The position numbers were made by a program, and so were the translations under genes. DNA of 62,811 bases. It comes from a virus. Shown here piece by piece: positions 21,301 to 48,396 of the stretch. Each line of letters begins with the position of its first letter. Positions within the stretch are counted from its first letter, which is position 1. Where the stretch lies: the IMG/VR virus record IMGVR_UViG_3300047175_000146, positions 1-62,811 of that record; one strand, 5' to 3'. Below the pieces are notes generated by a model, which had not been told where the DNA came from, ran no database searches, and was given only the letters and a program-made list of their open reading frames with translations.

Positions 21301-24300
21301 TTCGCAGCGCTCCTTCACCTATCCCAACGGCAATCCGGGGCAACGCACCATGCTCGCCCACTACGGCTATTTTCCCGGCCGTGAAGGCGCTGATGGCGAT
21401 GGCGTCGATGTGTATATCGGGCCTGCCAAGAGCGCGGACAGCGGCAAGGCCTATGTCATCGATCAGTTGCGGCCAGAAGGTGGCGCGTTCGATGAGCACA
21501 AGGTCGTGGTAGGCGTCGGCAGTGCCAAGCAGGCCAAAGAACTCTACCTCAAGCACTACCAGGAAGGTTGGCAGGGGTTCGGCGCGATCACGGCCATGGA
21601 TCACGAGGCCTTGGCCGACTGGCTCGCGCACGGCGATCTAACCCAGCCGGTCGCCTGGAAACCAGTCATCGAGCGTGGCCAGGGGCCCGATGCCCGCTAC
21701 GACTCCATTCTCGAATATCTCGCCCGCCACAAGCGGGGTCTCGACAGCACGGAGGCCGAAGCTCAGGGGATCGATCCGGCCGACATGAAGCTCGCCGCGG
21801 CGCACGTCGGGATACGGCGCGCTTTCCGCAAGGGCGGCATGGGCTTCGATCAGGCTGCTGAACATCTCCATGAGGAAGGGTATCCGGTCACGGATGAGCA
21901 CGGCAACTACTCGCCCAATGTGCTGCTCGAGCGCCTGGCGGACGAGCTCGCCGGCATCAAGCATTTCTCGAGCCATAACCAGACGCACACCGAGGAACTG
22001 GCGCGCGCCGAGCACGAGCGCATCGTCAACGTGCAGGCGGAACTCTCGCAGCGGCAGATCGACCGCTTGAGCGCCGAGCAGATCGAGGCACGCATGGCCG
22101 CGCTCGAAGCGGAGCAGGAGCGGCTTGCGATCCAAGCCGAACGGACCGCAGGCGACGCCGAGGACATGAATTCCATCCCGTTCTCCAAGCGTCAGCGGGA
22201 CCTTTTCGGCGAGCAAAATCACGTCAAGAACGAGATCAAGAAGCTTCAGATCGCCAAAGACAAGAAACGCAACAGCGGCCAGGAATCTCTCGAGACCGGG
22301 CGCCCGGATGACCTGTTCAGCCAGGCACGCCAGCAGATGGACCTGACCGACATCAAGGAGCCACCGACCGAGTACGCGCTCGCCGACAAGGCGAGCAAAA
22401 GGCCGATCAGCAACCAGTTGGATATTTTTGCCCCACGCGCGGTGACGCCGGCGGCCGCGGCGGTCAAGAAATCGGCCGCCATCTTGAGCCAGAAAACCAA
22501 ACTGGTGACGGTCGGCACGTTCCGCTCAGGACACGACAAAATAACCACTTGGCAGCAAGCCGCGCACGTGCTCGCGCCGCTGCGCAAAGGATCGCAGGAA
22601 ACCATGGCGGTTCTGGTCCTCGACAAGAACGGCAAACCGCTGTCGGTGATCCGCGGCGGCATGGGCACGATCAATGGCGCGAGCGTCGAGTACTGGTCAT
22701 TGAGCGGCGCGGTGGCTTCGATCCCAGGCGCTGATTCGGTGTATTTGGTTCACAACCATCCGTCCGGTTCGCTGGTTCAAGGAGAGGCCGACAACACGGC
22801 GACCGCCAAACTGACCGATCTGCTCGATGCCATGGGGCTCAAAACGCACGGCATGATCGTGCTGACGCCGAATGGCGCTAAAGCGTCCTTCGTTCCCTCC
22901 GATCCCAACCTGTTGGGTCACCAAGGTATACCGGGCGAGGTGGCGCCGGGCGGTAAGACGCGCGCGTTGGTGCCGGTTGCCGAACGGCGCTACGCCGCCG
23001 GCAACCGGCAAACAGGGCTGCCAGAAGGGGTGATTGGAACGCAATTGGCCAATCCCCGTGGCACGCGCAAAGTCGTCGAAACCGTCGCGCAGCACACACC
23101 TTCCGGTGTGCTGCTGCTCAACAATCATTATCGCGTCGTGGGTTTGTTGCCGATGGCCGACGCCGCCAAAGCCGCGTTGCGCTTGGGTTCCGATAACACA
23201 GGAGCCTGGGATCTGCTGCGCGCGCTGCACGAAGCCAACGCCAACAACATCATTCCGTATGGTGTTTCCGAAGACGCAGTCAAAAACGTGGTGCGTTTTG
23301 CGCGCGCCGCGGCCCTGAATGCGCCGGATGCCTTCGTCAAAAACGCGACCGGCGCGTGGAACAGCATGCAGGAGTCCGGCTTCGCTCCCGCCGGCGACAC
23401 CTTCAAGCGCACCAAATCGCAGAGCGGCGTCGGCATGCCGGTGGCGGACGTCAAAGCCATCGTCGACAAATTGCTCGGGCATTTTCGCAACAACCCCACC
23501 GATGTGGTGGTGGTGCAAAGCGCCGCGGACCTCGACAAGATCCCTGAGCTCGCCGGGCGCACCGATCCGGACGCGATCGGCCTCTTGGATCCGCGCACCG
23601 GCAAGATCTACCTGGTCGCGGATGAGATGCACAGTCCCGAGCACGTGGCGCTTACCCTGGCGCACGAGTACGTCGTGCACTACGGCCTGCGGGCGCAGTT
23701 TGACGACCGTCAAAACGCCGAGTATCAGGCAATACTTTCCGGAGTATTCAAAGCCATGCCCGCCGAGGTGCGTGCCCGGTTCGAGCAGGCCTTCCCGGGC
23801 CAGGATTTTGCATCCTCGACCTTGAACCAACGGCTGGTGGCGGCGGAGGAAGCGCTGGCTTACGCCGAGGAGCGGTATGCCAACGGCGCGGACATCTCAA
23901 AGCCCGTCCAAGGATTGCTCGAGCGACTGTACACGCTGCTGCGCGATTGGCTGCGCAACAAGTTGGGGTTGGCGCCTAAATTCGACAGCCTGTTCGTCCG
24001 CCGCACGCTCGATGACCTGCGCACGTTTTTGAAGAACTCCCGCAATCGTCCTGAATCGCAGCGCAGTGATGAAGCGCCGGCGGCCGCCAAGCCCCAAGAC
24101 ACGTTCTATTCCGCGCTCGCGCGCGCGGTGGATGCGGCAAAGCGGGACAAAGGCACCGGGCCTGAGTGGGAAGCCACGTTGCGCAACATGACGGGCGTCA
24201 AGGCCGAAGAGATGCAATGGCTGGGATTGAAGGATTGGCTTGCGGGCCGCGGCCGCGTGACCAAGCAGGAAGTTGCCGAGTATGTACACGCTCATCGGGT

Positions 24301-27300
24301 GCAACTGGGTGAAGTGAGGTATGGCGGTAACGACCAGCGCGACGTGTACCTCAACGAGATCCGCTCGCACGGGTTTGATGTCACTGAAGAGTCCGGCGGG
24401 CATCCGAGATTGATTTTTCCGGAAGATTGGGAAGAGGAAGACCCACCGCCGGCCGTCACGCGCGCGTATCACGAACTCGAAGATTTGATGGCGGGCGGCG
24501 ATCCACCGCAGTACCAGGAATGGGCGACGCCGGGCGGGCAGAACTACCGCGAGATGCTCTTTACTTTGCAGAGCAAGCCTTACGGCGTGGATTTGCGCAA
24601 ATCGATCTTCGATAAGTACGAGCCGCGCATCAGACAGATGTACGACAAAGCGATGGACATCTCGCGCACCGACACGCAGGGCGACCTTGATCGTGCCGCC
24701 GCGGCGCGCGAGGTGGATCGTTTGAGAGATGAACGCAATATCGAGGCGGACCGAATCTTCACCGTGCCGGAGCCGTACATTTCGCCGCATTGGGAAGTCG
24801 ACAATGTGGTGGCGCATGCGCGCGCCGATGACCGCTTCGGTCCGCACGGCGAGCGCGTCTATCACATCCACGAGATCCAATCCGATTGGCATCAAGCGGG
24901 TCGAAAGCATGGTTACGTCAGCGGTTTCGATTTAGCCAGACTCAAGGCGGCCTCCGCAGGCGATCCAAGCAACAGGTTGAATCCTAACGCCCCGCCCGAC
25001 GCGCCGTTCAAAACCAGTTGGCCCGAGCTCGCCTTCAAGCACATGCTGCGCGAGGCGGTCGAGCGCGGCTATGACGCCATCTCTTGGGACACCGGTTCGA
25101 CCAACGCCGGGCGCTACAACATGCAGCGGGTGGCAGACAAGATCAGCGTCGCCATCACGCCCAACAAGGAACCGCCGGAATATCACGTGCGCGCCACCAA
25201 GGGTGGCACCGTCGTGCACCAATCCTCTGATTTGAACGAGGAGCAACTGGCGGAACTGTTGGGCAAAGACATGGCGCAAAAGGCGATCAGCCGCTTGGGC
25301 GTCGCCAACGCCGTGTCGACCGATTTTTTGGGCGATGACTTGAAAATCGGCGGCGCGGGCATGCGCGCGTTCTACGACGGCATCCTGCCCAAAAAGGTCA
25401 ACGCGCTGGTCAAGAAGTGGGGTGCGTCGGTCGAAGCGGCCACGCTACCGAGCAAACCGGGGGGTCGCGCGACGATCGAACAGATCGACGGCGGCCATTG
25501 GCGCGTCACCGACCGCGACGGCCGGCATTTCGAATTCGATGATTTCCGCGACGCGCGCGAGTTTCTGGCCGCGGAATCCAAACACAATGCCGCCGGGCCC
25601 GAGGGCGGCCTGCCCGTGCACCTGGTGCGCATCACGCCGGCCATGCGCGATTCGGTGCTCGAAGGTTTGCCGATGTTCAAGAAAAAGGGCAAGGGCAAAG
25701 GTGGTGCGCCGCCGGCCCCTCGAGCTCCTGGACCGATCCGCAAAGGCTATGAAGTCGCTCGCACCGTCGCGAGCTCGATCCCCAACAACGAATTCGTAAT
25801 GGCGTTTCGCCGCATCTTGGCGCCGGCCGGCGTCTCCGAGTTCTCCAGGTCCGCGGCGCTCCTCACGCGCGAGAACTTGGGCGAACTCGCCCAGGCCAAA
25901 ACCCAAGCGCTACACGACCTCGAAAGCTACGCCAAAGCCTTCGACCAGTTGCCCATTCCCGACCGCTATGACTTCATTGACGCCATGGAAACCGGCCAAT
26001 CGCAGCCGCATGCGCCCCTGCAGCGAGCCGCCGACACCATCCGCGGCATGCTCGATGACACGCGCGAGGAGGTGCAGGCTCTCGGCGTCGGGGCGCTCGA
26101 AAACTGGATCGAGAACTACTTCCCGCACATCTGGCAGGATCAAAAGGCGGCATCGAAAGTGTTCCGGCAGATCTTCGGCCGCCGGCCGCTCAAAGGGCCG
26201 GCATCGTTCTTGAAGCAGCGCACCATTCCGACCACGCGCGAGGGTTTGGAGAAGGGACTGCAGCCGATCTCGAGCAACCCTTTGATTCTCGCTTACGCCA
26301 AGATCGTCGAGATGAAGCGTTTCATTGCCGGCGTCAAGCTCATGCAGAAATTCAAGGATGAAGGCCTGGCCGTATTCTTGCCGGCGCACAAGATGATGCC
26401 GGAAGGCTGGGCCGAGATCGAAGATGCGGTTGGCCGGGTGCTGCAATGGAGTGAGGCGGAAGGCGGCTTCGTGATCCGCGGCAAGTACATCATGCCGCAG
26501 GATGCCGCGCGCGTGATCAACAACCACTTGAGCGCATCGGCGCTGGCGAACTTTTTGCCGGCGCAGCTGTTCCGGGTCGCCAGCAACGCCGTCAACGCGC
26601 TGCAGCTTGGCTTCTCAGGGTTTCACTTGGGGTTCACGACCTTGGACGCCATCGTTTCCAAGAACGCGCTCGGCATCGAACGATTGTTGCACGGTGAACC
26701 GGTCAGGGCGGCCGCAACGTTCCTCGAGGCCAACGGCGTGATCACGGGTCCCATCATGAACCTGGCGCGCGGTTACAAACTGCTGAAAGCGTATACCAAC
26801 ATCTCGGGGGCGACGCCGGAAATGCGTCAACTGGTCGAGGCGCTGCAGGCCGGCGGCGGGCGCGTGTCCATGGACATGTCGTTCGCCGCGGCACGTGGGA
26901 TTTCGCCGTTCAAGGGCACCGGTTTTGCAACGCTCGCGGGAGAGGTCAAAGGGGCGCTGACACTGCCGTCGGGACGCATGGCCGAGCTCGGCAAGGTCGT
27001 CGGCGGTTTCCCGCGCGAATATGCGACGCGCCTGTGGCGGGATTTGCAGGCCATGGTCCACGAGATGCAGTGGCCGATCCTGACCGTGCCGCTCGAGATC
27101 GCCGGGCGCATCACGCGCGCATCGACGTCGGTGATCATGGAGCACATCGTGCCGATGCAAAAGCTCGGCGTGTTTTCGGACCTCGCCAGCGACTGGCTGC
27201 GCCGCAACCCGCAAGCCGATCCGGTGGCCATGCACGAGGCCATGCAGCGCATCTGGGATTCGGTCGACAACCGCCTGGGCGAAATGGTCTACGACAACGT

Positions 27301-28396
27301 GTTCTGGAACCGCACCTTCAAGGACGTGGCGCACATGATGGTGCGCGCGGTGGGGTGGAACTTGGGCACCGTCCGCGAGCTCGGGGGCGCGGCCATCGAC
27401 GTCGTCAAACTGCTCGACTACATGGCGCGCGGCGCGCCACCCGAGCCTGCGGGTACAGGCCTCACCAAAACGGCGCAGGCGCGCATGGACTACGAAGCGT
27501 CCAAATCCACCCTGACGCGCATCGCCGAGAAGGCCGGCCATCGCATCACATACACCCTGGCCCTGATCGCCACCACGATGCTGCTCGGCGCCATTGCGAC
27601 CAAGCTCATGAGCGGCCAGGGTCCTCAAGAGATCAAGGATTATTTCTTCCCGTGGACGGGGCGCAAAACCAAGTACGGCACCAAGGAACGCATGTCGATG
27701 CCGACCTACACCAAGGATTTGTATGAGTACGGCACCATGCCTGTGCAAACGCTGATCAACAAGGCCAACCCCATTTTTGGGATCATGCATTCCATTTATG
27801 CCAACGAGGACTTCTACGGCAACCCCATCCGCCATTCGGATGCGGATTTCTGGACCCAGATGAAGGAGGGCGCCTCGTACGCGGCCCGCGAGACGCTGCC
27901 ATTTTCCTACCAGGGCGGCAAGCAGTACTTGAGCGCGCGCAACCAGGAGTTGGGCGATGCGAGCGGCGATCTGAAACGTCAAGTGCTGACCATCGCGCCG
28001 TACGCCGGCTTCGGTCCCGCACCGGCGCGCATCACCTCACCCGACCAGATGGAGCGCTATCAGCAGGAGGAGGAAGAGCGCGGTTGGGTGCGCGGCCTGC
28101 AACGCCAGTACAAGGCGGCGCTCGAGCGCCACGATGAGCCTGAAATAAAGCGCCTGCGGGCCGAGCTCGCCGCGGCCAAGCACAAGGCCAAGCAGACGCA
28201 GGGTGCGATCAAACAGGACCGTTCCAAAGCGCGCGAACAGGCTGACAAAATCGGTGCACTCATCCAAGGCAAATCGCGCGATCAAGCCGTCGCGGCACTC
28301 AAGGACGCCGGCCTGCCGGCTTTTGCGCAATTGTGGAATGCGATGTCCGATAATTTGCGGCCGCGGGTGGCTGAAAGACTAGGAGCCTATGCGTGA
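18371..28396 (+). CDS. Giant (3,341 aa) polyvalent virion/ejection protein
   Basis: Uninterrupted 10,026-nt ORF. Motifs are readable for GGDEF, a pyrophosphatase-like barrel, RadC/JAB (HNHPSG), zincin HExxH, an 'EIQSDWHQ' polyvalent-associated block, and a C-terminal membrane/coiled-coil core. It sits between internal-virion-type genes and the lysis cassette. Confidence 0.85.
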   Translation: MAAGWIAQGPPQPAGPANDAPVGNAPPGNTIAGDWQLVGQPEPLDPTAIKPVAKNAIEDTRSIYQQARDFVFGHDPDADDTDQVRKPGVLPSIVAGAQDLDRGTKDFATAGPDWSTLAKAYPHILAAQAERVGAGVQEATGASQTQSAELQIAALNVLPQAAARLKSQVPGQSGIVPVEQLAQDPLVEKTARGLGLDPVVFASQWSQYAGMSPEKQADAMADAQATLADGAKNKELGANSRYQAWADERAWEPSDLLNGKLDPWTLKSVAFNTATALPAVVATAGATLAGSAAGGPAGGLIAGATVGSAIFGPQGYANAKDAIDAQSSRLLEKADELDAAAPIGSRRALNPAAALLRQQAADLQASSDKIAMTAGMLTAVASAAGGAPLSAVLARAPGGQAILNRIVGSAIAQTAGGRVAGTAIANGAGAVVQASLQKAIDVGIVHEDQSLADALKDIAAAGVIGVTTALPIAGAHEMLIGGPRAQAKRDFDTEQFAAQAQRMAAGGALGGEPSAASQEDYPGYRWDPNIPNGTDRNGNAVYGRFVPTGTNGANAETTAALTGPQQPTGETNADGGEPLGGAGGGGAAGARQAYTDKMTALNTAAAKAEKRSDITLQPEEEGWSIHVNGEPVATFDTAANARAALASARKLVGTAPKVNPSSSASAATAEADTDQGQSGAPQAQTEFPQNPPSEDAAGTNAPAKPTAAAPASGDANLDDLEHTQQIDVQPETDRRQDTDLRARFDAMTPEQKFAAAYAHELTGIPNRRAYVDSPKKPAQVSIDVDSLKWVNDNMGHPSGDAYLKAVATALHQASGGNAYHISGDEFVVQADSPEHAQAIMAAAKARLADATLTFEHPDGRTITLKGIGVSHGTGQSLEEADSRLAQNKADREQSGLRAGRGSEPPGTSRGSAQAGLPAEERGPATGGGLSGGRQTEVLGQRVQAPAVPTQAQAAAGNYFKPTVEWHGLPIKIENEPGSQRSFTYPNGNPGQRTMLAHYGYFPGREGADGDGVDVYIGPAKSADSGKAYVIDQLRPEGGAFDEHKVVVGVGSAKQAKELYLKHYQEGWQGFGAITAMDHEALADWLAHGDLTQPVAWKPVIERGQGPDARYDSILEYLARHKRGLDSTEAEAQGIDPADMKLAAAHVGIRRAFRKGGMGFDQAAEHLHEEGYPVTDEHGNYSPNVLLERLADELAGIKHFSSHNQTHTEELARAEHERIVNVQAELSQRQIDRLSAEQIEARMAALEAEQERLAIQAERTAGDAEDMNSIPFSKRQRDLFGEQNHVKNEIKKLQIAKDKKRNSGQESLETGRPDDLFSQARQQMDLTDIKEPPTEYALADKASKRPISNQLDIFAPRAVTPAAAAVKKSAAILSQKTKLVTVGTFRSGHDKITTWQQAAHVLAPLRKGSQETMAVLVLDKNGKPLSVIRGGMGTINGASVEYWSLSGAVASIPGADSVYLVHNHPSGSLVQGEADNTATAKLTDLLDAMGLKTHGMIVLTPNGAKASFVPSDPNLLGHQGIPGEVAPGGKTRALVPVAERRYAAGNRQTGLPEGVIGTQLANPRGTRKVVETVAQHTPSGVLLLNNHYRVVGLLPMADAAKAALRLGSDNTGAWDLLRALHEANANNIIPYGVSEDAVKNVVRFARAAALNAPDAFVKNATGAWNSMQESGFAPAGDTFKRTKSQSGVGMPVADVKAIVDKLLGHFRNNPTDVVVVQSAADLDKIPELAGRTDPDAIGLLDPRTGKIYLVADEMHSPEHVALTLAHEYVVHYGLRAQFDDRQNAEYQAILSGVFKAMPAEVRARFEQAFPGQDFASSTLNQRLVAAEEALAYAEERYANGADISKPVQGLLERLYTLLRDWLRNKLGLAPKFDSLFVRRTLDDLRTFLKNSRNRPESQRSDEAPAAAKPQDTFYSALARAVDAAKRDKGTGPEWEATLRNMTGVKAEEMQWLGLKDWLAGRGRVTKQEVAEYVHAHRVQLGEVRYGGNDQRDVYLNEIRSHGFDVTEESGGHPRLIFPEDWEEEDPPPAVTRAYHELEDLMAGGDPPQYQEWATPGGQNYREMLFTLQSKPYGVDLRKSIFDKYEPRIRQMYDKAMDISRTDTQGDLDRAAAAREVDRLRDERNIEADRIFTVPEPYISPHWEVDNVVAHARADDRFGPHGERVYHIHEIQSDWHQAGRKHGYVSGFDLARLKAASAGDPSNRLNPNAPPDAPFKTSWPELAFKHMLREAVERGYDAISWDTGSTNAGRYNMQRVADKISVAITPNKEPPEYHVRATKGGTVVHQSSDLNEEQLAELLGKDMAQKAISRLGVANAVSTDFLGDDLKIGGAGMRAFYDGILPKKVNALVKKWGASVEAATLPSKPGGRATIEQIDGGHWRVTDRDGRHFEFDDFRDAREFLAAESKHNAAGPEGGLPVHLVRITPAMRDSVLEGLPMFKKKGKGKGGAPPAPRAPGPIRKGYEVARTVASSIPNNEFVMAFRRILAPAGVSEFSRSAALLTRENLGELAQAKTQALHDLESYAKAFDQLPIPDRYDFIDAMETGQSQPHAPLQRAADTIRGMLDDTREEVQALGVGALENWIENYFPHIWQDQKAASKVFRQIFGRRPLKGPASFLKQRTIPTTREGLEKGLQPISSNPLILAYAKIVEMKRFIAGVKLMQKFKDEGLAVFLPAHKMMPEGWAEIEDAVGRVLQWSEAEGGFVIRGKYIMPQDAARVINNHLSASALANFLPAQLFRVASNAVNALQLGFSGFHLGFTTLDAIVSKNALGIERLLHGEPVRAAATFLEANGVITGPIMNLARGYKLLKAYTNISGATPEMRQLVEALQAGGGRVSMDMSFAAARGISPFKGTGFATLAGEVKGALTLPSGRMAELGKVVGGFPREYATRLWRDLQAMVHEMQWPILTVPLEIAGRITRASTSVIMEHIVPMQKLGVFSDLASDWLRRNPQADPVAMHEAMQRIWDSVDNRLGEMVYDNVFWNRTFKDVAHMMVRAVGWNLGTVRELGGAAIDVVKLLDYMARGAPPEPAGTGLTKTAQARMDYEASKSTLTRIAEKAGHRITYTLALIATTMLLGAIATKLMSGQGPQEIKDYFFPWTGRKTKYGTKERMSMPTYTKDLYEYGTMPVQTLINKANPIFGIMHSIYANEDFYGNPIRHSDADFWTQMKEGASYAARETLPFSYQGGKQYLSARNQELGDASGDLKRQVLTIAPYAGFGPAPARITSPDQMERYQQEEEERGWVRGLQRQYKAALERHDEPEIKRLRAELAAAKHKAKQTQGAIKQDRSKAREQADKIGALIQGKSRDQAVAALKDAGLPAFAQLWNAMSDNLRPRVAERLGAYA
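20630..21060 (+). other. GGDEF (diguanylate-cyclase-type) domain, active-site variant SGDEF, no RxxD I-site
   Basis: The sequence reads 'HELTGIPNRRAY...QVSIDVDSLKWVNDNMGHPSGDAYLKAVATAL...AYHISGDEFVVQ...GIGVSHGTG.SLEEADSRLAQNK'. SGDEF is at 20834..20848. The residues 5-9 upstream are ASGG, not RxxD. Confidence 0.75.
21235..21650 (+). other. Inorganic-pyrophosphatase-like domain (tentative)
   Basis: 'GADGDGVDVYIG' resembles the PPase D-x-D-x-x-D signature, followed by 'FDEHKVVVGV' and 'AKELYLKHY'. Confidence 0.35.
22530..22890 (+). other. RadC-like JAB/MPN domain
   Basis: 'ETMAVLVLDKNGKPLSVIRGGMGTINGASV...VYLVHNHPSGSLVQGEADNTATAKL'. HNHPSG is at 22751..22768. A second, degenerate JAB-like stretch ('VLLLNNHYRVVGLLPM') follows. 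Confidence 0.8.
23560..23760 (+). other. Zincin-like metallopeptidase motif region (HExxH)
   Basis: 'IYLVADEMHSPEHVALTLAHEYVVHYGL'. HEYVVH is at 23663..23680. Confidence 0.5.
24101..25680 (+). other. Large-polyvalent-protein-associated block
   Basis: 'TFYSALARAV...GPEWEATLRNMTGVKAEEMQWLGLKDWL', 'RVYHIHEIQSDWHQAGRKHGY' (24863..24895), 'GGAGMRAFYDGILPKKVNALVKKWG' and 'LPMFKKKGKG' recall blocks seen in giant phage/conjugative-element proteins. This is from memory only. Confidence 0.45.
25740..28396 (+). other. C-terminal ejection-core region with TM helix and coiled coil
   Basis: 'GRRPLKGPASFLKQRTIPT' (26176..26222); hydrophobic helix 'ITYTLALIATTMLLGAIATKLM' (about 27545..27610); charged coiled coil 'ERYQQEEEERGWVRGLQRQYKAALERHDEPEIKRLRAELAAAKHKAKQ'. 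Confidence 0.5.
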
Positions 28397-35770: not shown

Positions 35771-35806
35771 AGCCGGTCTCGCTTGCGGGGACCGGCTTTA
35801 TTTTGC
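35771..35806. terminator. Bidirectional rho-independent terminator between convergent operons
   Basis: agccggtctc-gcttgcg-gggaccggct forms a 10-bp stem (one G.U pair) with a 7-nt loop, followed by ttattttg. It lies between + gene end 35751 and - gene end 35880. Confidence 0.6.
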
Positions 35807-35879: not shown

Positions 35880-36818
35880 TCATTCGCATAAGCCGTAAAC
35901 CGAACTGCAACCGCTTGCAGGTTCGAGCCTTATAAAGTCTTGCTGGCGACCACCGTGCGCGGTTTCTGCCCATCGGATTCTCGCGTCGATATTGAGCCGG
36001 TTGAAAATCTGCTCGTGCGTCTCGTCTTCCTCACTGCTGTCGCAGAAAAAGGTAGTCCAGCCCCGCTTAGCCGCCATGCAGATCAGTTGTTCCCATTCGC
36101 GGATTCGGTCAACGTGCGCAGGGCAGCGTTTCGAGATTTCAAGCAGTTCGTTCTTATTGGCGTTAATGCAGGGCATACACCCGACGCGACCCATGCCCAT
36201 CGCGTACAGCGGATTCAGTTTCACACCGCGCCCGGTCACAAAGTCCACCGTCTGCTGGGCGGTCCAAGACGCTATCGGATGCTCGATCATCCAGCCCTCG
36301 GCAGCGCGTTCTGAATCCTTAGCGTCCTTTCGGTTCTGGCTCTCATCGCGCCGGATGCCACGCCAGCTCGATAAGTCCCACCCCTCGGCCAGCCGATCCA
36401 TCATGTAGGCGTCGAGCGGGCGTCGCTTTAGCTCCTGGGTGCAGAACTGCGCTTTGCGACTCGGAAAGCGGCCTTTCCAAAGGCATAGGTCTAAAAACGG
36501 ATTGCCGGTCGGATGCAGAACGCTCAGGGCACGCGCCACGATCTCAGGCGGCACACCTTTGGCTGGCCACTTCGTTTCGACGTACAGCCGCTTACCGGCA
36601 ATCTGGCGCGTGAAGTCTGCCTTCACGGTGATGATTTCACCGAACACCGTGGGCATGTAGTTGTTGACGTACTCAAGCGTCAGTTCATGCTCGTTGCCAG
36701 TATCGGCAAAAATGAACCGGCAGTTCTCCCGGCCCACGCGATCCATAGCAAGGAGCGCAGTCGCGGTGCTGTCTTTGCCGCCCGAAACAGAGACGATGGC
36801 GAGGGGTTTGCCTTTCAC
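35880..36818 (-). CDS. PP-loop ATPase of the PAPS-reductase/DndC-like family
   Basis: 'LAIVSVSGGKDSTATALLAM' (SGGKDS at 36768..36785) is the PP-loop. Also 'GIRRDESQNR', plus Cys motifs 'GCMPC' and C-terminal 'GCSSVYGLCE'. Confidence 0.75.
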   Translation of the reverse strand: MKGKPLAIVSVSGGKDSTATALLAMDRVGRENCRFIFADTGNEHELTLEYVNNYMPTVFGEIITVKADFTRQIAGKRLYVETKWPAKGVPPEIVARALSVLHPTGNPFLDLCLWKGRFPSRKAQFCTQELKRRPLDAYMMDRLAEGWDLSSWRGIRRDESQNRKDAKDSERAAEGWMIEHPIASWTAQQTVDFVTGRGVKLNPLYAMGMGRVGCMPCINANKNELLEISKRCPAHVDRIREWEQLICMAAKRGWTTFFCDSSEEDETHEQIFNRLNIDARIRWAETAHGGRQQDFIRLEPASGCSSVYGLCE

Positions 36819-36848
36819 TTCGCGTTCGCTTCGGTCATCGATTGAGAG

Positions 36849-37445
36849 TCAGACACCCAATTCATGTTGCGGATGCTCCCCTTTGATGACGGCCAAACAA
36901 TCTTCCAACATGTGATCGAACCGGCTCATGCCGCTGCCGTCGATCGAGTCAGCCAAGCCGATCCAATTGCGCAGCCGCAAGGCGGTATTGACGCGGCCGA
37001 CGTGGACCCATTTGCCCATCATCTTGGCGGCCTTCGCCACGGCCAGGGCTTGCGGGCTTGATTTGAACGGCGTGCTGCCGCCGATAAACACGCAGCGGAA
37101 GCGCTCCCAAGGTATCGGCCAATTCTCTATACCGTCCTGAATGACCAGCGCAAGCGGAACGTCTGGCATCTTGGGCGCGAAGTAATCGAACAGTTCTAGC
37201 GTCCTAGCGGCGTCGCCTACGATATCGGGACAGCAGGCCCACAGCGGGCAGTCGCCTTCGGTTTCAGTCAGCAGCCGTTCCCATGTGGCGCGCTCAAAGG
37301 TCTTGAAGCAGCCGTTGTCCAGGCCATAAGGAACCGGCGCCCGCGAATAGGCGGTGAGCGGCGTTCGCAGTTGCCAGAACTCAAAGCCGTATCGCTCGGT
37401 ATATTCAGCGATCTTGGCCGGCGAGCAGTCGAGCATGATTTTCAC
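36849..37445 (-). CDS. TGT-superfamily / DpdA-like DNA transglycosylase candidate (tentative)
   Basis: Ordered motifs parallel TGT TIM-barrel landmarks: 'GLDNGCFK' (cf. DSGGFQ), 'LALVIQDG' (cf. IVQGG), 'VFIGGST' (cf. aiGGl), 'VHVGRV' (cf. lmGvG), 'ADSIDGSGMSR' (cf. DmFDcv.PTR). The protein is 198 aa. Confidence 0.45.
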   Translation of the reverse strand: MKIMLDCSPAKIAEYTERYGFEFWQLRTPLTAYSRAPVPYGLDNGCFKTFERATWERLLTETEGDCPLWACCPDIVGDAARTLELFDYFAPKMPDVPLALVIQDGIENWPIPWERFRCVFIGGSTPFKSSPQALAVAKAAKMMGKWVHVGRVNTALRLRNWIGLADSIDGSGMSRFDHMLEDCLAVIKGEHPQHELGV

Positions 37446-37474: not shown

Positions 37475-37666
37475 TCAGGCGAACAGATCCTGCTGCGGCT
37501 GTTCCTGCTTTTGCCGGTATTTGTGACCTGGCAACTGGTGGAACTTACGCCAAAAGCAGCGCGCTGCAGCTTCGCAATCTGCAGGCTGAACACAATGCGG
37601 CGACCACTCCTTGCCGGTATAGACGCCATCCTCACGGACTTCGGTGCACGGTTTCAGGGAAGGCAT
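37475..37666 (-). CDS. Small Cys-containing hypothetical protein
   Basis: 63-aa ORF overlapping the end of the repeat-protein gene, in operon context. Confidence 0.35.
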   Translation of the reverse strand: MPSLKPCTEVREDGVYTGKEWSPHCVQPADCEAAARCFWRKFHQLPGHKYRQKQEQPQQDLFA

Positions 37667-38391
37667 TCGCCGATGATCTCGCGCTGCAAGGCGCCGAACT
37701 TCTCTTCATCGCCGATCGTCTCGCCGATGAGCGCCACCACCCACAGACGATCGCCCTTCCATGCCGGCGGGATCAGCGTTGCGTGCAGCGCGCCGCTCGA
37801 GCAGAGATTCAATGGTCCTTTGACGGTGTGCACCACGCCGGGCTTCGCAGGCTCAAGGCGCTGGCCATGAATTGCGGTGCCGTCTTTCTTCGAGTGCCAG
37901 AAGCAGATCCTGGCACCCAGCGCATTCAGTTCTTCAAGCCGCGCTCGCTGCGCATCGCTCCACCTCGCTGCAAAAAAAGAGATTGTCTTCGACCAATAAT
38001 AGCCGGAGCCGGAACTGTCGCCGGAGCTGTCGCCGGAGCCGTCGCCGAAGCCGGCGCCGTAGCCGAAGCCGGAGACGTAGCCGTAGCCGGAGCCGTCGCC
38101 GCAGCCGGAGCCGTCGCCGGAGACGTAGCCGTAGCCGGAGCCGTCGCCGGAGACGTAGCCGGAGGCGGAGCCGGCGCCGGAGCCGGCGCCGCAGCCGGAG
38201 CCGTCGCCGTAGCCGGAGCCGTCACCGGCACCGTCGCCGTAGCCGTCGCCGCAGCCGTAGCCGTCGCCGAAGCCGTCGCCGGAGCCGGAGCCGTCGCCGC
38301 AGCCGTAGCCGTCGCCGAAGCCGTCGCCGTAGCCGTCGCCGTAGCCGTAGCCGTCGCTCGGCGCCCATGCAGGCGCCTCGCCGTGAAGCAT
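37654..38391 (-). CDS. Acidic Gly-Asp-Tyr/Ser repeat protein with a globular C-terminal domain
   Basis: TAATG overlap start at 38391 (ORF extends to 38418). About 120 aa of (G-D-G-[YSF]-G) repeats are followed by 'YYWSKTISFFAARWSD...LCSSGALHATLIPPAWKGDRLWVVALIGE'. Confidence 0.6.
   Translation of the reverse strand: MLHGEAPAWAPSDGYGYGDGYGDGFGDGYGCGDGSGSGDGFGDGYGCGDGYGDGAGDGSGYGDGSGCGAGSGAGSASGYVSGDGSGYGYVSGDGSGCGDGSGYGYVSGFGYGAGFGDGSGDSSGDSSGSGYYWSKTISFFAARWSDAQRARLEELNALGARICFWHSKKDGTAIHGQRLEPAKPGVVHTVKGPLNLCSSGALHATLIPPAWKGDRLWVVALIGETIGDEEKFGALQREIIGECLP
38001..38358 (-). repeat. Imperfect tandem 6/18-nt coding repeat tract (gccgtagccggagccgtc-like units)
   Basis: Read directly. It produces repeat ORFs in several frames on both strands. 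Confidence 0.85.
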
Positions 38392-38684
38392 TACGACTTC
38401 CACGGCGCCTTCTCCCACGCCTCGACCGCTTCAGGCGTGCACACCGCGACACTGGTGATGTCGCGCAGTTCGAGGTCCGCCGCGGGCCCGATCCTCGATC
38501 CCGACAACGGTCCGAACTTCGCAAGGCCCAGAAAGCCTTTTTGCTGCGGCGGCCAATAGATGCAATTGCGTGCCGCGCGCAGTTTGATGATCGCGCCCTC
38601 GGTCTCCATCGCGTAGCCAAAAAACACTCCGCGATGGCTGGTCGTCACCAGCACTGCGCGTTCCTGTTGCTCTTTATTTATCAC
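38391..38684 (-). CDS. Hypothetical protein
   Basis: 97-aa ORF 'MINKEQQERAVLVTTSHRGVFFGYAMETEGAIIKLRAARNCIYWPP...' with RBS 'aggagaccgaag' before the GTG/ATG region. Confidence 0.55.
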   Translation of the reverse strand: MINKEQQERAVLVTTSHRGVFFGYAMETEGAIIKLRAARNCIYWPPQQKGFLGLAKFGPLSGSRIGPAADLELRDITSVAVCTPEAVEAWEKAPWKS

Positions 38685-38774: not shown

Positions 38775-40166
38775 CTAGCCTCCCGCGGCCTGGCGCGCGA
38801 GGTAGTGGGCTTTCACGAACGCACCATACGGTGTCGGCGTACCCGAGGAGTCCGTGATCAAGATGAACGAACTGACTCCAGTCCATGCGTCCCAGGTCCA
38901 AGCAAAGTAGCTTACGCCGGGGAAGCTCGCCCCCGCTGCGCCCATCGACTGCGCAGCCCTTCCACCCGGATCCGCCCAGCCATACAAGCTCGCCGAATCG
39001 GTAGTCTGGGTGTTCTGATCGCCATACTCCGTGACCAGGATCGGGATGCCCTTGTTGAGCACCACGTTGGCGCCGGATTCGAACTTCGATCCGTTGTAAT
39101 AATGAAGGCCACCGGCGATCTGCGGCGGGTTGAGCGTGTCTTTTGCTGGGAACCAACCTGGCGGGTTATCGACGTACCCTGTCTCCGCCGATTTGTTGTT
39201 ACCAAATGTGCTGGCGTAGTTGAGGCCGTCTTGGATGATCACGTTGGTGGCGCCAGTCGCTCGAATAGCGTTCACCATTGCCTGGCAGTTGGTGTCGTAG
39301 TTGGACGACAGTTGCCCATTGACGTAGTTGTTCCAGTCGGCGGTTGTGGGCGGGTAGTTGCCCTGCGGTTCATTGAATAGCTCGAACATCACGGCCGGGT
39401 TTCCCTTGAACGTATTGGCAACTTCGGTCCAGAAGTCGAGCGAGTGCGCGCTGTCGGCCATCGCGTTCTGACCTTGAGGACAGATATCGTTACCGACGAC
39501 GACCCAGTGCAGATCCAAGATCACATACATGCCGTTGGCAACGGCGTTGGCTACCGCTGCTTTTACCGTTGCCTGGTAGACCGCCGGCGTCACCCCATTG
39601 GCAAGAGTCTGGCTGCAAAGTCCGAGCCAGTTTGCTTCGCCCAACGGCAAGCGCACGGCGTTGACTCCCCACGATTTGATCGCTGCCCAGTTGGGAGTCT
39701 GCCCGCGCCATGGGTCATTGGGGAACGGCGTGCCTTCGAGGCTCGATATGTTCACCCCTCGCAATTGGATCGGCTTTCCGCTCCCATTGACGATGTTATT
39801 ACCGACGACCTTCACACCGAAAACTGGCGGAGGCGCCGGAGTTGGTGCGGGTGCCGGGGTCGGAGTAGGCGCCGGCGCAGTGGCGAATGGCGATGTGACC
39901 TCGGTCCACTGAGAGATCACCAGTTCATAGCAGGTACCCTGAGCATTGATCTGGTAAAAGTTTCCGCCCGAGATCCCGATCGCGGCGACGCCCGCCGTGG
40001 AGAGATCCGGTGCACCGTTCATTGTCACCTGGCCCGCTGAGTTGATTCCGCGCACCACGCCATCAGCAGTCGTAATGGTCTGGTTGCTTCCAGCCTTTAC
40101 GACTGTGCCGTCTTTGGTGGGCACTACCGGGGTCCACACCCCATTGACATATAAGTTTGTAGCCAC
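38775..40166 (-). CDS. Glycoside hydrolase family 5 (cellulase-type) enzyme with N-terminal domain and Pro/Thr/Ala linker
   Basis: 'WGVNAVRLP', 'GMYVILDLHW' and 'VMFELFNEP' (NEP at 39366..39374) are GH5 landmarks. The linker is 'APAPTPTPAPAPTPAPPP'. A strong RBS AGGAGG lies 7 nt before the GTG start. No signal peptide. Confidence 0.85.
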   Translation of the reverse strand: MATNLYVNGVWTPVVPTKDGTVVKAGSNQTITTADGVVRGINSAGQVTMNGAPDLSTAGVAAIGISGGNFYQINAQGTCYELVISQWTEVTSPFATAPAPTPTPAPAPTPAPPPVFGVKVVGNNIVNGSGKPIQLRGVNISSLEGTPFPNDPWRGQTPNWAAIKSWGVNAVRLPLGEANWLGLCSQTLANGVTPAVYQATVKAAVANAVANGMYVILDLHWVVVGNDICPQGQNAMADSAHSLDFWTEVANTFKGNPAVMFELFNEPQGNYPPTTADWNNYVNGQLSSNYDTNCQAMVNAIRATGATNVIIQDGLNYASTFGNNKSAETGYVDNPPGWFPAKDTLNPPQIAGGLHYYNGSKFESGANVVLNKGIPILVTEYGDQNTQTTDSASLYGWADPGGRAAQSMGAAGASFPGVSYFAWTWDAWTGVSSFILITDSSGTPTPYGAFVKAHYLARQAAGG

Positions 40167-47645: not shown

Positions 47646-48019
47646 CAGTCAATGGTAATTCGTCGGTGTGCCCATTTTGCGGCACAGACCGCGTATCGGC
47701 GGCCGCGCACACGTGTCCGGGATTCGAGAACGCCGGCTCTGAGAATGGGCTCTTGGGTAGCGTAATGCGCCATCAACCCATCGACGCGCAAGCGCGCGAG
47801 GCTCATATCCGCGACCAGGCGTACAAAGAGGGCCTGCGCGTCGGTCTCGACTGGGGCCGCAAGGTGAGCGAGCGCGTATTGAGGCAAAGCCTGGCGGCCA
47901 TCGCCGGTGACTTCAATCCGCGCGCCCTGCCGGAAAACCTGCAGCACAGTTGCGATGAGGGCGCAGACGGCATCAGCTTGGGAAACCCGTTTGATGGCAA
48001 AAGTCGGGTAATGCCATGA
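47642..48019 (+). CDS. Hypothetical protein
   Basis: 125-aa ORF with an ATGA overlap. Confidence 0.5.
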   Translation: MTVNGNSSVCPFCGTDRVSAAAHTCPGFENAGSENGLLGSVMRHQPIDAQAREAHIRDQAYKEGLRVGLDWGRKVSERVLRQSLAAIAGDFNPRALPENLQHSCDEGADGISLGNPFDGKSRVMP

Positions 48020-48396
48020 CTTTAGAGGATGATTTCGTGGAATTTTGGATGCTTGGCGGCCGGATCACCCGGTTGGCTCTGGTTGACCTCTTCCCGCGCT
48101 GGCTCAATGCCAACGTGTTCACGTTCCTGTGTCCGTGCTGCTGGCAGGTGCTGTTGACCGTCAAGCGCGCTCCGATGGCGCTGGACGAGCAATGGGCGTT
48201 GTTCGATTCGGCGTTCGGTGAGGACTGCTCCCACATTATCGTCCCCACCCGCCCGTCAGCGGCATGGACCATGAACGGCGATGATTTCGAACGCATGACG
48301 GTAACGCCGTCGGTGGATGCCTCGCAAGCCGGCCATTGGCACGGTTTCATCAACTACGGCCATATCGTGGGCGGACAGGTCAAGTCCTGTCGGTGA
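48016..48396 (+). CDS. Hypothetical protein (DUF6527-like by motif), 3' end altered by tandem duplication
   Basis: 'LCPCCWQVLL...TVTPSVDASQAGHWHGFINYGHIVG'. The ORF ends ...GGQVKSCR-stop, whereas the duplicated copy ends ...GGQVKS-stop. Confidence 0.55.
   Translation: MTLEDDFVEFWMLGGRITRLALVDLFPRWLNANVFTFLCPCCWQVLLTVKRAPMALDEQWALFDSAFGEDCSHIIVPTRPSAAWTMNGDDFERMTVTPSVDASQAGHWHGFINYGHIVGGQVKSCR

Follow-up and report, generated by a model that had tools for sequence, protein, structure and literature searches.

A probable minimal DpdA-superfamily barrel beside a NinC-family PP-loop protein in a viral genome: candidate DNA-modification cargo

Two adjoining genes in a virus of the IMG/VR collection (record IMGVR_UViG_3300047175_000146) raise the question of whether a very small protein resembling DpdA might modify phage DNA, and whether it does so together with the putative ATP-dependent enzyme encoded next to it. 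The DNA analyzed here, referred to as the window, is a single stretch of 62,811 bp on which both proteins are recorded. The genes lie on the minus strand at 36849..37445 (198 residues) and 35880..36818 (312 residues), with 30 nt between them. An initial annotation, made from the sequence alone, had read them as a DNA hypermodification pair, i.e., a protein like tRNA-guanine transglycosylase (TGT) or DpdA coupled to a PP-loop ATPase of the 3'-phosphoadenosine-5'-phosphosulfate (PAPS) reductase/DndC type. The explanation that we favor, and to which we give an even chance, is that the two genes are accessory cargo for DNA modification, placed where an early leftward operon ends, each drawn from a family that usually works without the other.

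The smaller protein is discussed first. The initial annotation had called for a prediction of its structure; the AlphaFold2 model, computed from an alignment with 38 homologues, is a compact but complete (β/α)8 TIM barrel (pLDDT 92.3, pTM 0.89), with strands at residues 2-5, 23-27, 40-42, 70-71, 98-102, 118-121, 146-149 and 167-169 and helices interleaved in TIM order. Conservation within this family, hereafter the mini family, was judged on a 39-sequence alignment reaching down to 34% identity. Residues D43, P73, D74, Q103, D104, G105, F120, G122, G123, H148, G150, R151, D169 and G170 were invariant, with N44, G45, F47, D166 and S167 at least 90% conserved, and the conserved positions cluster at the C-terminal ends of strands 3 to 8. 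The TGT landmarks noted in the initial annotation (LDNGCF, VIQDG, FIGG, HVGRV and ADSIDGS) are thus present in the expected order, and the invariance of their residues across the alignment shows that they are not chance resemblances. The cysteine within the first of these motifs, C46, is at least 90% conserved only within the alignment of close relatives (A1).

The placement of these residues was compared with that in bacterial DpdA (bDpdA) of Salmonella Montevideo. In that enzyme, D95 is the general acid/base and stands just before the insertion in the β3/α3 loop, F99 stacks on the base, D130 and H181-G182 recognize the base, G206-G207 form the glycine-rich loop past β6 that reads the 7-substituent, and D256, at the start of the β8/α8-loop insertion, is the nucleophile (PMC10164549). 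The corresponding series in the mini protein, D43-x3-F47, D74, Q103-D104-G105, G122-G123 and D166/D169, runs in the same order and falls on the same strands wherever the paper states the strand (β3, β6 and β8). By alignment and modeled topology, D43, D74 and D166/D169 appear to correspond to bDpdA D95, D130 and D256. Bacterial DpdA and TGT thus have in common with the mini protein a TIM barrel, an Asp past each of β3, β4 and β8, and a Gly-Gly loop past β6 (PMC10164549).

The individual motifs were also aligned with those of two groups of phage DpdA, the CAjan-type DpdA1 and the singleton DpdA of phages that encode DpdA alone. LDNGCF (residues 42-47; 37305..37322, minus strand), just past β3, aligns with LDNGAF of singleton DpdA and LDSGAF of DpdA1, with D43 and F47 as the putative counterparts of D95 and F99. 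PDIVGD (residues 73-78; 37212..37229, minus strand), past β4, contains D74, the candidate equivalent of the base-recognizing D130, and was aligned to PDVIDG and LDGIGD in the profile comparisons with singleton DpdA and DpdA1. FIGG (residues 120-123; 37077..37088, minus strand) forms the Gly-Gly loop past β6, probably equivalent to the G206-G207 pair that contacts the 7-substituent, and was aligned to LGSSG and LGGMV in the same comparisons. HVGRV on β7 (residues 148-152) and ADSIDGS on β8 (residues 165-171), together spanning 36933..37004 on the minus strand, align with KLHGLRM and SADS of singleton DpdA; either D166 or D169 is the candidate nucleophile. A base-recognition position at which the mini protein departs from DpdA is VIQDG at the end of β5 (residues 101-105; 37131..37145, minus strand), where Q103-D104-G105 stand in place of His181 and the following Gly. 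DpdA2 likewise has no corresponding conserved His (PMC6884629).

What sets the mini protein apart is its economy. All four insertions of bDpdA (Ins1, Ins2, Ins3 and Ins8) are missing, and the chain ends about 30 residues, i.e., one helix, past β8. TGT has a zinc-binding C-terminal subdomain; neither this subdomain nor Ins8 is present in the mini protein, which has no Cys/His cluster.

Sequence libraries said little about this barrel. Its only library match was phrog_15826 (1e-33), a family of unassigned function, and Pfam (E ≤ 1), NCBIfam and PADLOC gave none. A search of the PDB with the mini-family alignment as profile returned nothing relevant, a result that is uninformative rather than negative because a profile of genuine CAjan-type DpdA1 also misses every TGT and DpdA chain. 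Comparison with predicted viral structures in BFVD was more telling: among the top 20 matches, no fewer than seven are phage proteins of the queuine tRNA-ribosyltransferase/DpdA kind, including those of Sulfolobales Beppu virus, Bella96, Sonali and Megan. At rank 7 stands M4SLA5 of Cellulophaga phage phiST (259 residues; TM 0.62 normalized to the query), which is presumably the DpdA3 of that phage (CGPG_00065). The top match, A0A0F7L9Z1 of an uncultured marine virus (E 4.7e-10, TM 0.71 normalized to the query, 26% identity), is a protein of 499 residues in which the barrel is fused to about 300 further residues. In a rank test of the mini-family hidden Markov model (HMM) against approximately 10,400 open reading frame (ORF) fragments, the best match from outside the family was the canonical DpdA of phage Sonali.

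A family met next to relatives of the PAPS-like gene provides the bridge between the mini family and DpdA. Its members have 245 residues, start with MIHYHGLP, and carry LDNGAF, PDVIDG, HMHE, LGSSG, KLHGLRM and SADS; they are the singleton DpdA already known from Salmonella phages 7-11, SW9, SPN3UB and BTP1, as well as from SfI and HK106. With hhalign, singleton DpdA matched CAjan-type DpdA1 at a probability of 98% (E 1.5e-13), and the mini family at 63% (E 7.2e-5), the latter alignment spanning 184 columns with the motifs all in register. The resulting transitive link, from the mini family through singleton DpdA to DpdA1, is of moderate strength and was scored on sequence profiles without secondary structure. 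Taken together, the fold, the placement of residues, this profile link and the neighborhood described below indicate that the 198-residue barrel is very probably a DpdA-superfamily protein, and as such a candidate DNA guanine/7-deazaguanine transglycosylase. The TGT/DpdA-like assignment of the initial annotation therefore stands on these grounds; a direct match to the TGT family PF01702 was not among them.

Homologues of the mini protein number at least 1,580 in a large protein database, all of about 200 residues and without a Pfam domain. The family is nearly all viral, with only 13 loci in 185,579 species genomes, most of them on contigs of metagenome-assembled genomes. SEA-PHAGES labels its members in Mycobacterium phage GreaseLightnin and in Arthrobacter phages Aoka and Sonali "DpdA-like tRNA-guanine transglycosylase". 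GreaseLightnin and Aoka have the mini gene alone, and M. smegmatis is not known to make preQ0. Identity of the family with DpdA4 (DUF6610) or DpdA3 was considered and rejected, there being no PF20314 match and no Cellulophaga or Campylobacter phage among the tblastn matches. The idea that the barrel is a domain of a giant polyvalent protein, raised by the label "DarB-like antirestriction protein" in Erythrobacter phage ZS04, was also dropped, the annotated gene there encoding only 213 residues. The family is best read as an uncharacterized minimal DpdA subfamily. A subfamily of about 200 residues outside bDpdA and DpdA1 to DpdA4 is new with respect to the literature searched, in which no experimental test was found, and some database annotations do recognize it.

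In Escherichia phage phiG7 (a Seuratvirus; L093 6926-7518), and also in SHIN8, the mini homologue lies between a polymerase accessory gene and the DNA polymerase and is split into two annotated ORFs, tblastn matching it in two pieces. These phages (Queuovirinae) also carry a full DpdA together with FolE, QueD, QueE and QueC. The split copy may be a frameshifted remnant or may reflect a programmed frameshift; the copy at the same genome position in Vibrio phage R29Z is intact.

The genomic neighborhood of the family was examined in 80 IMG/VR loci with a mini homologue. A que gene was found in the flank of 24 of them, nearly always directly adjoining: QueD or another member of the 6-pyruvoyltetrahydropterin synthase (PTPS) family in 19, QueE in five, QueC in two and FolE in none. 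CAjan-type DpdA was present in 0 of these 24. Pfam backs the que calls (PF01242 down to 5e-32, PF06508 at 2.5e-71, and radical SAM), and gene orders such as mini-QueE-QueC-PAPS_reduct (L042) and mini-QueE-QueD (L077) were seen. A relative of the window protein at 71% identity comes directly after a PTPS gene. Whereas one group of these PTPS genes is ordinary QueD, the largest (18 loci; L016 and L020-L024, e.g., L024 1398-1823) scores only 3.6e-10 against PF01242 and was not matched by tblastn in any of 50,697 genomes of isolated phages. By the precedent of DpdA3 and DpdL (PMC10516641), this group may represent a QueD paralogue that, like DpdL, decarboxylates 7-carboxy-7-deazaguanine (CDG), rather than QueD itself.

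The neighborhood was closely matched at 80 loci of singleton DpdA, which had QueD in 11, QueE in eight, QueC in one, FolE in none and a PAPS-like gene in six. FolE is thus absent from all 160 small-DpdA loci (L010-L089 and L277-L356), which typically have just a single pathway gene, QueD in some and QueE in others, as if each phage carried one booster gene. Only L042 has both a PAPS-like gene and que genes.

Among described systems, singleton DpdA is the closest parallel. It occurs in temperate phages of gammaproteobacteria (7-11, SW9, SPN3UB, BTP1, SfI, HK106 and the Pantoea MED16 group), and like the mini protein it is a small barrel encoded without the full pathway to preQ0 (7-cyano-7-deazaguanine), with LDNG-F, PD-V/I, GS/GG, H-G-R and ADS in common. 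The companions are also alike, i.e., QueD, QueE, rarely QueC and never FolE, with PAPS-like genes at 7-11% of loci. However, BLAST and HMMER detected no relation between the two families, and at 198 as against about 245 residues the mini protein is some 50 residues shorter, has Q-D-G where singleton DpdA has H-M-H-E past β5, and lacks the MIHYHG N-terminus. Two further families, DpdA3 (phiST CGPG_00065, Campylobacter phage CP220) and DpdA4 (DUF6610, Halovirus HVTV-1), are likewise divergent, short viral TGT-like proteins that were recognized solely by HHpred and by que neighbors (PMC10516641). DpdA3 is encoded near the QueD paralogue DpdL (PMC10516641), as the mini gene adjoins PTPS-family genes. 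DpdA3 replaces all guanines in phages that have FolE, QueD and QueE, whereas the window has none of these genes.

To look for synthesis genes throughout the window, HMMs built from phage QueD, QueC, QueE, FolE and CAjan-type DpdA sequences were run on its 892 six-frame ORF fragments. No match below E = 0.03 was obtained, the sole near-match being that of the PP-loop of the 312-residue protein to QueC. A Pfam scan of the non-structural genes found no que gene either; it did identify a small terminase, a glycoside hydrolase family 5 (GH5) cellulase, DUF6948, a PolB-like exonuclease, helix-turn-helix domains and DUF6527. Unlike the bacterial system, the window also has no DpdB or DpdC. The initial annotation was therefore right that no deazaguanine synthesis genes accompany the pair, and this holds for the whole window. 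It had gone on to state that described DpdA systems come with FolE/QueD/QueE/QueC or with DpdB/C, and that a mini-TGT with a PAPS-reductase-like partner would therefore be a different wiring. The first statement is not supported, because the largest group of phages in the survey of Hutinet 2019, 76 of 182 viruses, encodes DpdA alone (PMC6884629); DpdA without synthesis genes is hence a documented class, and their absence does not by itself make the wiring different. Phages 7-11 and MED16, which belong to this class, have low levels of dADG (2'-deoxy-7-amido-7-deazaguanosine), about 0.02% of G or less, with a precursor thought to be made by the host (PMC6884629, PMC8306585).

The 312-residue protein is almost certainly a PP-loop enzyme of the PAPS-reductase/SspD-like kind, much as the initial annotation had it. 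It matches PF01507 at 3.3e-19 (70 bits against a cutoff of 22.5) and phrog_424 at 1.4e-60. The PP-loop that the annotation had called textbook is SGGKDS, the ATP pyrophosphatase signature, at residues 12-17 (36768..36785, minus strand), in which S12, G14, K15, D16 and S17 are invariant in 31 homologues. Over the same homologues the invariant cysteines are C112, C126, C214, C217, C304 and C311; the other invariant residues include S10, D39, G41, E43, H44, R117, P119, R121, F125, T127, L130 and K131, followed by W152, G154, R156, E159-S160, R163 and G213. The C214-x-x-C217 pair, within GCMPC (36168..36179, minus strand), aligns with the iron-sulfur ligands GCAPC of Mycobacterium tuberculosis adenosine-5'-phosphosulfate (APS) reductase (7lhr). 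The terminal cysteine cluster noted earlier is also real: in the tail GCSSVYGLCE (35883..35909, minus strand) C304, S306, Y308, G309, L310 and C311 are invariant, and the tail resembles the mobile ECGLH tail that carries the catalytic Cys of CysH and APS reductase. In APS reductase a Cys-Cys pair and a CxxC serve as cluster ligands, and the catalytic Cys lies in the C-terminal ECGLH tail; we take C126, C214/C217 and C311 to be the likely counterparts of these cluster and catalytic cysteines.

The AlphaFold2 model of this protein (pLDDT 92.8) has an additional helical C-terminal region of about 90 residues. Foldseek placed the iron-sulfur APS reductases 2goy and 7lhr first among PDB entries, then CysH, then TtuA, the top matches to APS and PAPS reductases being at E ~1e-7. 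In PADLOC the best match was SspD (74.8 bits, 2.2e-21), with coverage limited to positions 73-210 of the 277 in the profile; BrxP and DndC came next. Membership of the characterized equivalog families was not reached, with scores of 45 bits against a cutoff of 154 (PRK02090), 41.9 against 235 (TIGR02055) and 25.4 against 254 (TIGR02057) for CysH and APS reductase, 16.5 against 290 (TIGR03183) for DndC, and 17.9 against 22 (PF06508, PP-loop region only) and 13.9 against 150 (TIGR00364) for QueC. The protein therefore has in common with SspD/DndC/BrxP and CysH the PP-loop fold, the CxxC pair and the C-terminal Cys tail, but differs in these sub-cutoff scores and in its extra helical region.

The protein is also homologous to NinC of phage lambda, as shown by BLASTP (3e-15, 28% identity over 190 residues) and by hhalign (98.6%, E 1.2e-15). 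It is 42-47% identical to the "PAPS reductase" of phages 186, P2-like, phiE125, phi644-2, S1, Parlo, Riah and Alfacinha, and has at least 6,793 homologues. By tblastn, this window-type subfamily occurs in 331 of 50,697 phage records and a second PAPS_reduct subfamily in 448, i.e., about 0.65-0.9% of phage genomes per subfamily. PAPS-like genes are very common in temperate phages and are usually found without any DpdA. Where they were checked (Parlo, S1, Alfacinha1 and lambda), NinC and the phage "PAPS reductase" genes occupy an accessory region, early or nin, and frequently have DNA methyltransferases as neighbors; in Parlo, S1 and Alfacinha1 the window-type gene stands alone, near such methyltransferases. 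In lambda and in phages 186, P2-like, phiE125, phi644-2, S1 and Parlo the gene has no DpdA-type neighbor, unlike in the window. No functional characterization of NinC was found in the literature searched.

Whether the two genes form a pair was addressed from both sides. The closest relative of the mini gene (84% identity) has no PAPS-like gene in the following 2.6 kb, or ten genes, and relatives at 64-72% identity have no PAPS-like neighbor. In 163 further loci with a window-type PAPS gene, the mini gene was found in none and a DpdA-type gene in four, leaving 159 with no gene of DpdA type. In these four the neighbor is singleton DpdA: in L099 (77% identical to the window PAPS protein) a 245-residue singleton-type DpdA lies directly upstream with overlapping stop and start codons, in L100 (76%) one lies directly downstream, and in L117 and L236 one is also close. 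Of the four context-resolved relatives closest to the window-type gene, L099 and L100 make up two. An initial co-occurrence test by tblastn with the window PAPS protein gave 2 of 89 mini loci and was too insensitive; all-against-all clustering, Pfam and HMMs brought to light the second PAPS_reduct subfamily (276-287 residues) within 6 kb of the mini gene in nine of the 80 loci, directly adjoining it in L052-54. What this subfamily has in common with the window protein is limited to the PP-loop, C126, the CxxC pair and a Cys at the C-terminus.

Pairing of a DpdA-type with a PAPS/NinC-type gene is thus seen at 7-11% of DpdA loci; the subfamilies differ, and either gene may come first. By a tally of coordinates, about 17 lineages have both genes, which adjoin in five and lie within two genes of each other in about 14. 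PAPS-like genes stand beside DpdA-type genes about as often as QueE does, and more often than QueC. The pairing also occurs in a cultured virus, Erythrobacter phage vB_EliS_R6L, in which the mini gene gp10 is two genes from the PAPS reductase gp7 (L276 5902-8407). The operon there comprises the mini homologue (33% identity), a 202-residue "molecular chaperone", a 62-residue ORF and the 347-residue PAPS reductase; a DNA modification methylase lies farther along. Broken down by organism, the isolated-phage records with the mini gene (27) and those with the window-type PAPS gene (331) barely overlap. NinC-type genes as regular companions of two small DpdA families are new with respect to the literature searched.

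We propose that the 198-residue protein would act as a bare (β/α)8 DpdA/TGT barrel that has lost every insertion and the C-terminal subdomain and has kept the catalytic set, i.e., the Asp past β3, the Asp past β4, Q-D-G past β5, Gly-Gly past β6 and Asp-Ser/Asp-Gly on β8. After replication, it would flip guanine out of phage DNA, displace it through a covalent Asp-deoxyribose intermediate and insert a 7-deazaguanine base. This is the double-displacement mechanism proposed for bacterial DpdA and TGT (PMC10164549). The phage has no synthesis genes, and the base, preQ0 or another pathway intermediate, would therefore have to come from the queuosine pathway of the host, as in the documented singleton-DpdA phages. 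A host-derived base means, in turn, that the modification would probably be partial and sequence-selective, serving against restriction. The 312-residue protein, a NinC-family PP-loop enzyme whose architecture resembles that of an iron-sulfur APS reductase or of SspD, would adenylate its substrate with ATP and then deliver sulfur or another nucleophile through its conserved cysteines.

Several observations weigh against this proposal. The 198-residue protein has no direct profile match to PF01702 (TGT) or PF20314 (DUF6610), and direct hhalign comparison of the mini family with DpdA1, represented by a 17-sequence CAjan-type alignment, was weak (probability 5.5%, E 0.007), even though it brought the first three motifs into correct alignment. 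Foldseek against the PDB returned generic TIM barrels (PdxJ, ThiG, transaldolase), with no TGT in the top 50. Also missing from the mini protein is the C-terminal insertion, 30% of bacterial DpdA, which the authors of the DpdA structure tied to DNA binding (PMC10164549), and the singleton-DpdA phage Orion had no modification at all (PMC6884629). Seuratvirus phiG7, Vibrio phage R29Z and Arthrobacter phage Sonali each have a full-length DpdA in addition to the mini homologue, which suggests that the role of the homologue is not simply redundant with that of DpdA. The supply of preQ0 by the host is putative. Finally, DpdA-type and PAPS-type genes lie close together so recurrently that complete independence of the two is called into question.

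That last point leads to the possibility, which we consider a minority one, that the 198- and 312-residue proteins are functional partners. As a two-enzyme module, in which we likewise place limited confidence, the DpdA-type enzyme would insert a host-derived 7-deazaguanine while the NinC/PAPS-like enzyme acts with ATP and its cysteines or an iron-sulfur center. The latter might make or alter the base before insertion, in a QueC-like or thio-derivatizing reaction, or might modify the inserted base or the adjoining backbone, giving a product not yet described. Such a module is favored by recurrence of the pairing with non-orthologous partners (the window, L099, L100, L117 and L236 on the one hand and the second PAPS subfamily on the other), by the six singleton-DpdA loci with a PAPS-like gene, by gp10 and gp7 of R6L, and by the usual spacing of zero to two genes. 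PAPS-like genes are moreover about as frequent beside DpdA-type genes as QueE despite their rarity per subfamily among phage genomes. Yet the partner is absent from 71 of the 80 mini loci, 74 of the 80 singleton-DpdA loci and 159 of the 163 PAPS loci, the closest mini relative lacks it, and the isolated phages bearing the two families barely coincide. Both families sit in the nin or early accessory regions of temperate proteobacterial phages, which are tightly packed, have few genes and include NinB-like, Dam, Dcm and Lar neighbors as well as NinC, itself a nin gene; closeness is therefore expected even without a functional link. Such a shared hot spot could explain the pairing equally well. 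We know of no chemistry that links the PAPS-reductase fold to deazaguanines, which also counts against a module.

The barrel might instead be related to DpdA and yet not be a DNA guanine transglycosylase, its substrate belonging to the deazaguanine pathway as a free base, a nucleoside or a nucleotide, an idea that we regard as unlikely. With the same low probability its substrate might be tRNA or a protein (compare the TGT-family Cap10 of type IV CBASS, the cyclic-oligonucleotide-based antiphage signaling system), or it might assist another transglycosylase, as an accessory subunit or by setting its specificity. Enzymes of the TGT fold are reported to have taken on protein deazaguanylation (10.1101/2025.04.06.647259), and the coexistence with full DpdA, the loss of the DNA-associated insertion and C-terminal subdomain of bacterial DpdA (PMC10164549), and Q-D-G in place of the H-G of DpdA would all fit such a role. 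On the other hand, all three catalytic Asp positions are kept, the family is all but restricted to phages, and in 24 of 80 loci no TGT-like gene other than the mini gene stands beside the que genes, the same situation that led to DpdA3 and DpdA4 as inserting enzymes (PMC10516641). Least probable of all, in our estimate, is a role in backbone sulfur chemistry, in which an SspD/DndC-like enzyme would phosphorothioate phage DNA with a host cysteine desulfurase and partners, the barrel being unrelated cargo. SspD as the best match in the defense library, ahead of BrxP and DndC, the APS-reductase-like fold, and the conserved CxxC and C-terminal cysteines speak for it. However, the DndC score is far under its cutoff, the scanned genes of the window showed nothing like the Ssp or Dnd partners (SspA/B/C or DndA/D/E), hundreds of phages carry a NinC-family gene singly, and the barrel is left unexplained. 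We thus retain the reading of the two genes as accessory cargo from families that mostly act separately.

DpdA is treated as the signature gene of 7-deazaguanine in viral DNA, with bDpdA and DpdA1 to DpdA4 as the published subfamilies. If the mini family is active, surveys of deazaguanine-modified phages undercount them, and the mini barrel would be the smallest known scaffold for DNA base exchange, with interest for site-specific labeling of DNA. A more far-reaching interpretation, which we offer as speculation, is that DpdA and a NinC-type protein form a recurrent two-gene phage cassette that converts a host queuosine precursor into an undescribed DNA modification, e.g., a sulfur-containing or ATP-activated 7-deazaguanine derivative, with the barrel as a fifth, minimal DpdA subfamily of 198 residues lacking the DNA-binding insertion. 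Should this be true, it would give the NinC-family proteins of lambda and other phages a first function. NinC-type genes in any case rank with the most frequent companions of two small DpdA families that are independent of each other, a lead for NinC function, and R6L offers a cultured system in which the question of pairing can be taken up.

The position of the two genes within the window is well defined. The start of the 198-residue protein is identical in the JGI gene call, and is supported because its N-terminus, MKIMLD, is conserved in homologues. A gene map based on G+C at third codon positions delimits a leftward block from about 42257 down to 35880. About 85 nt past the stop of the 312-residue gene, facing a convergent plus-strand gene, is a hairpin at 35771..35797 that resembles a bidirectional intrinsic terminator, with a 10-bp stem containing seven G-C pairs, and is bordered by AAAGAAC and TTATTTTG, an A-run and a T-run. 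It would close both the leftward operon and the convergent gene; the 198- and 312-residue genes are therefore the final two of the operon, as the initial annotation had proposed. Megablast of 24 kb of the window against the 50,697 phage records gave zero matches.

Other genes of the window were noted in passing. Directly upstream of the mini gene, 37654-38418 (minus strand) encodes a 254-residue protein with a Gly/Asp/Tyr/Ser repeat (GDGYGDG...) of about 140 residues near its N-terminus and a non-repetitive C-terminal domain; it has no PHROG match and in Pfam only a weak, low-complexity one (TrAA12). The DNA encoding the repeat (38000-38365) is a tandem array of 12/18/30-bp units with 78-81% matches. 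Next in the leftward operon are a DUF6948 gene (38391-38684, minus strand; 7.8e-21) and the GH5 cellulase of 463 residues (38775-40166, minus strand; PF00150, 5.8e-32), which thus lies in the early operon and not among the tail genes. In a related 69-kb contig (L097), GH71 and cellulase-like genes adjoin the PAPS-like gene. L097 also has a BubE gene, as does the window at 48016-48396 (plus strand; DUF6527/BubE, 1.3e-6). The segment 60001-62811 has a G+C content of 0.53 compared with about 0.62 elsewhere in the window, and the third-position G+C filter calls zero genes there. In the structural region, a single ORF of 3,341 residues with a coding-like G+C profile occupies 18371-28396 on the plus strand.

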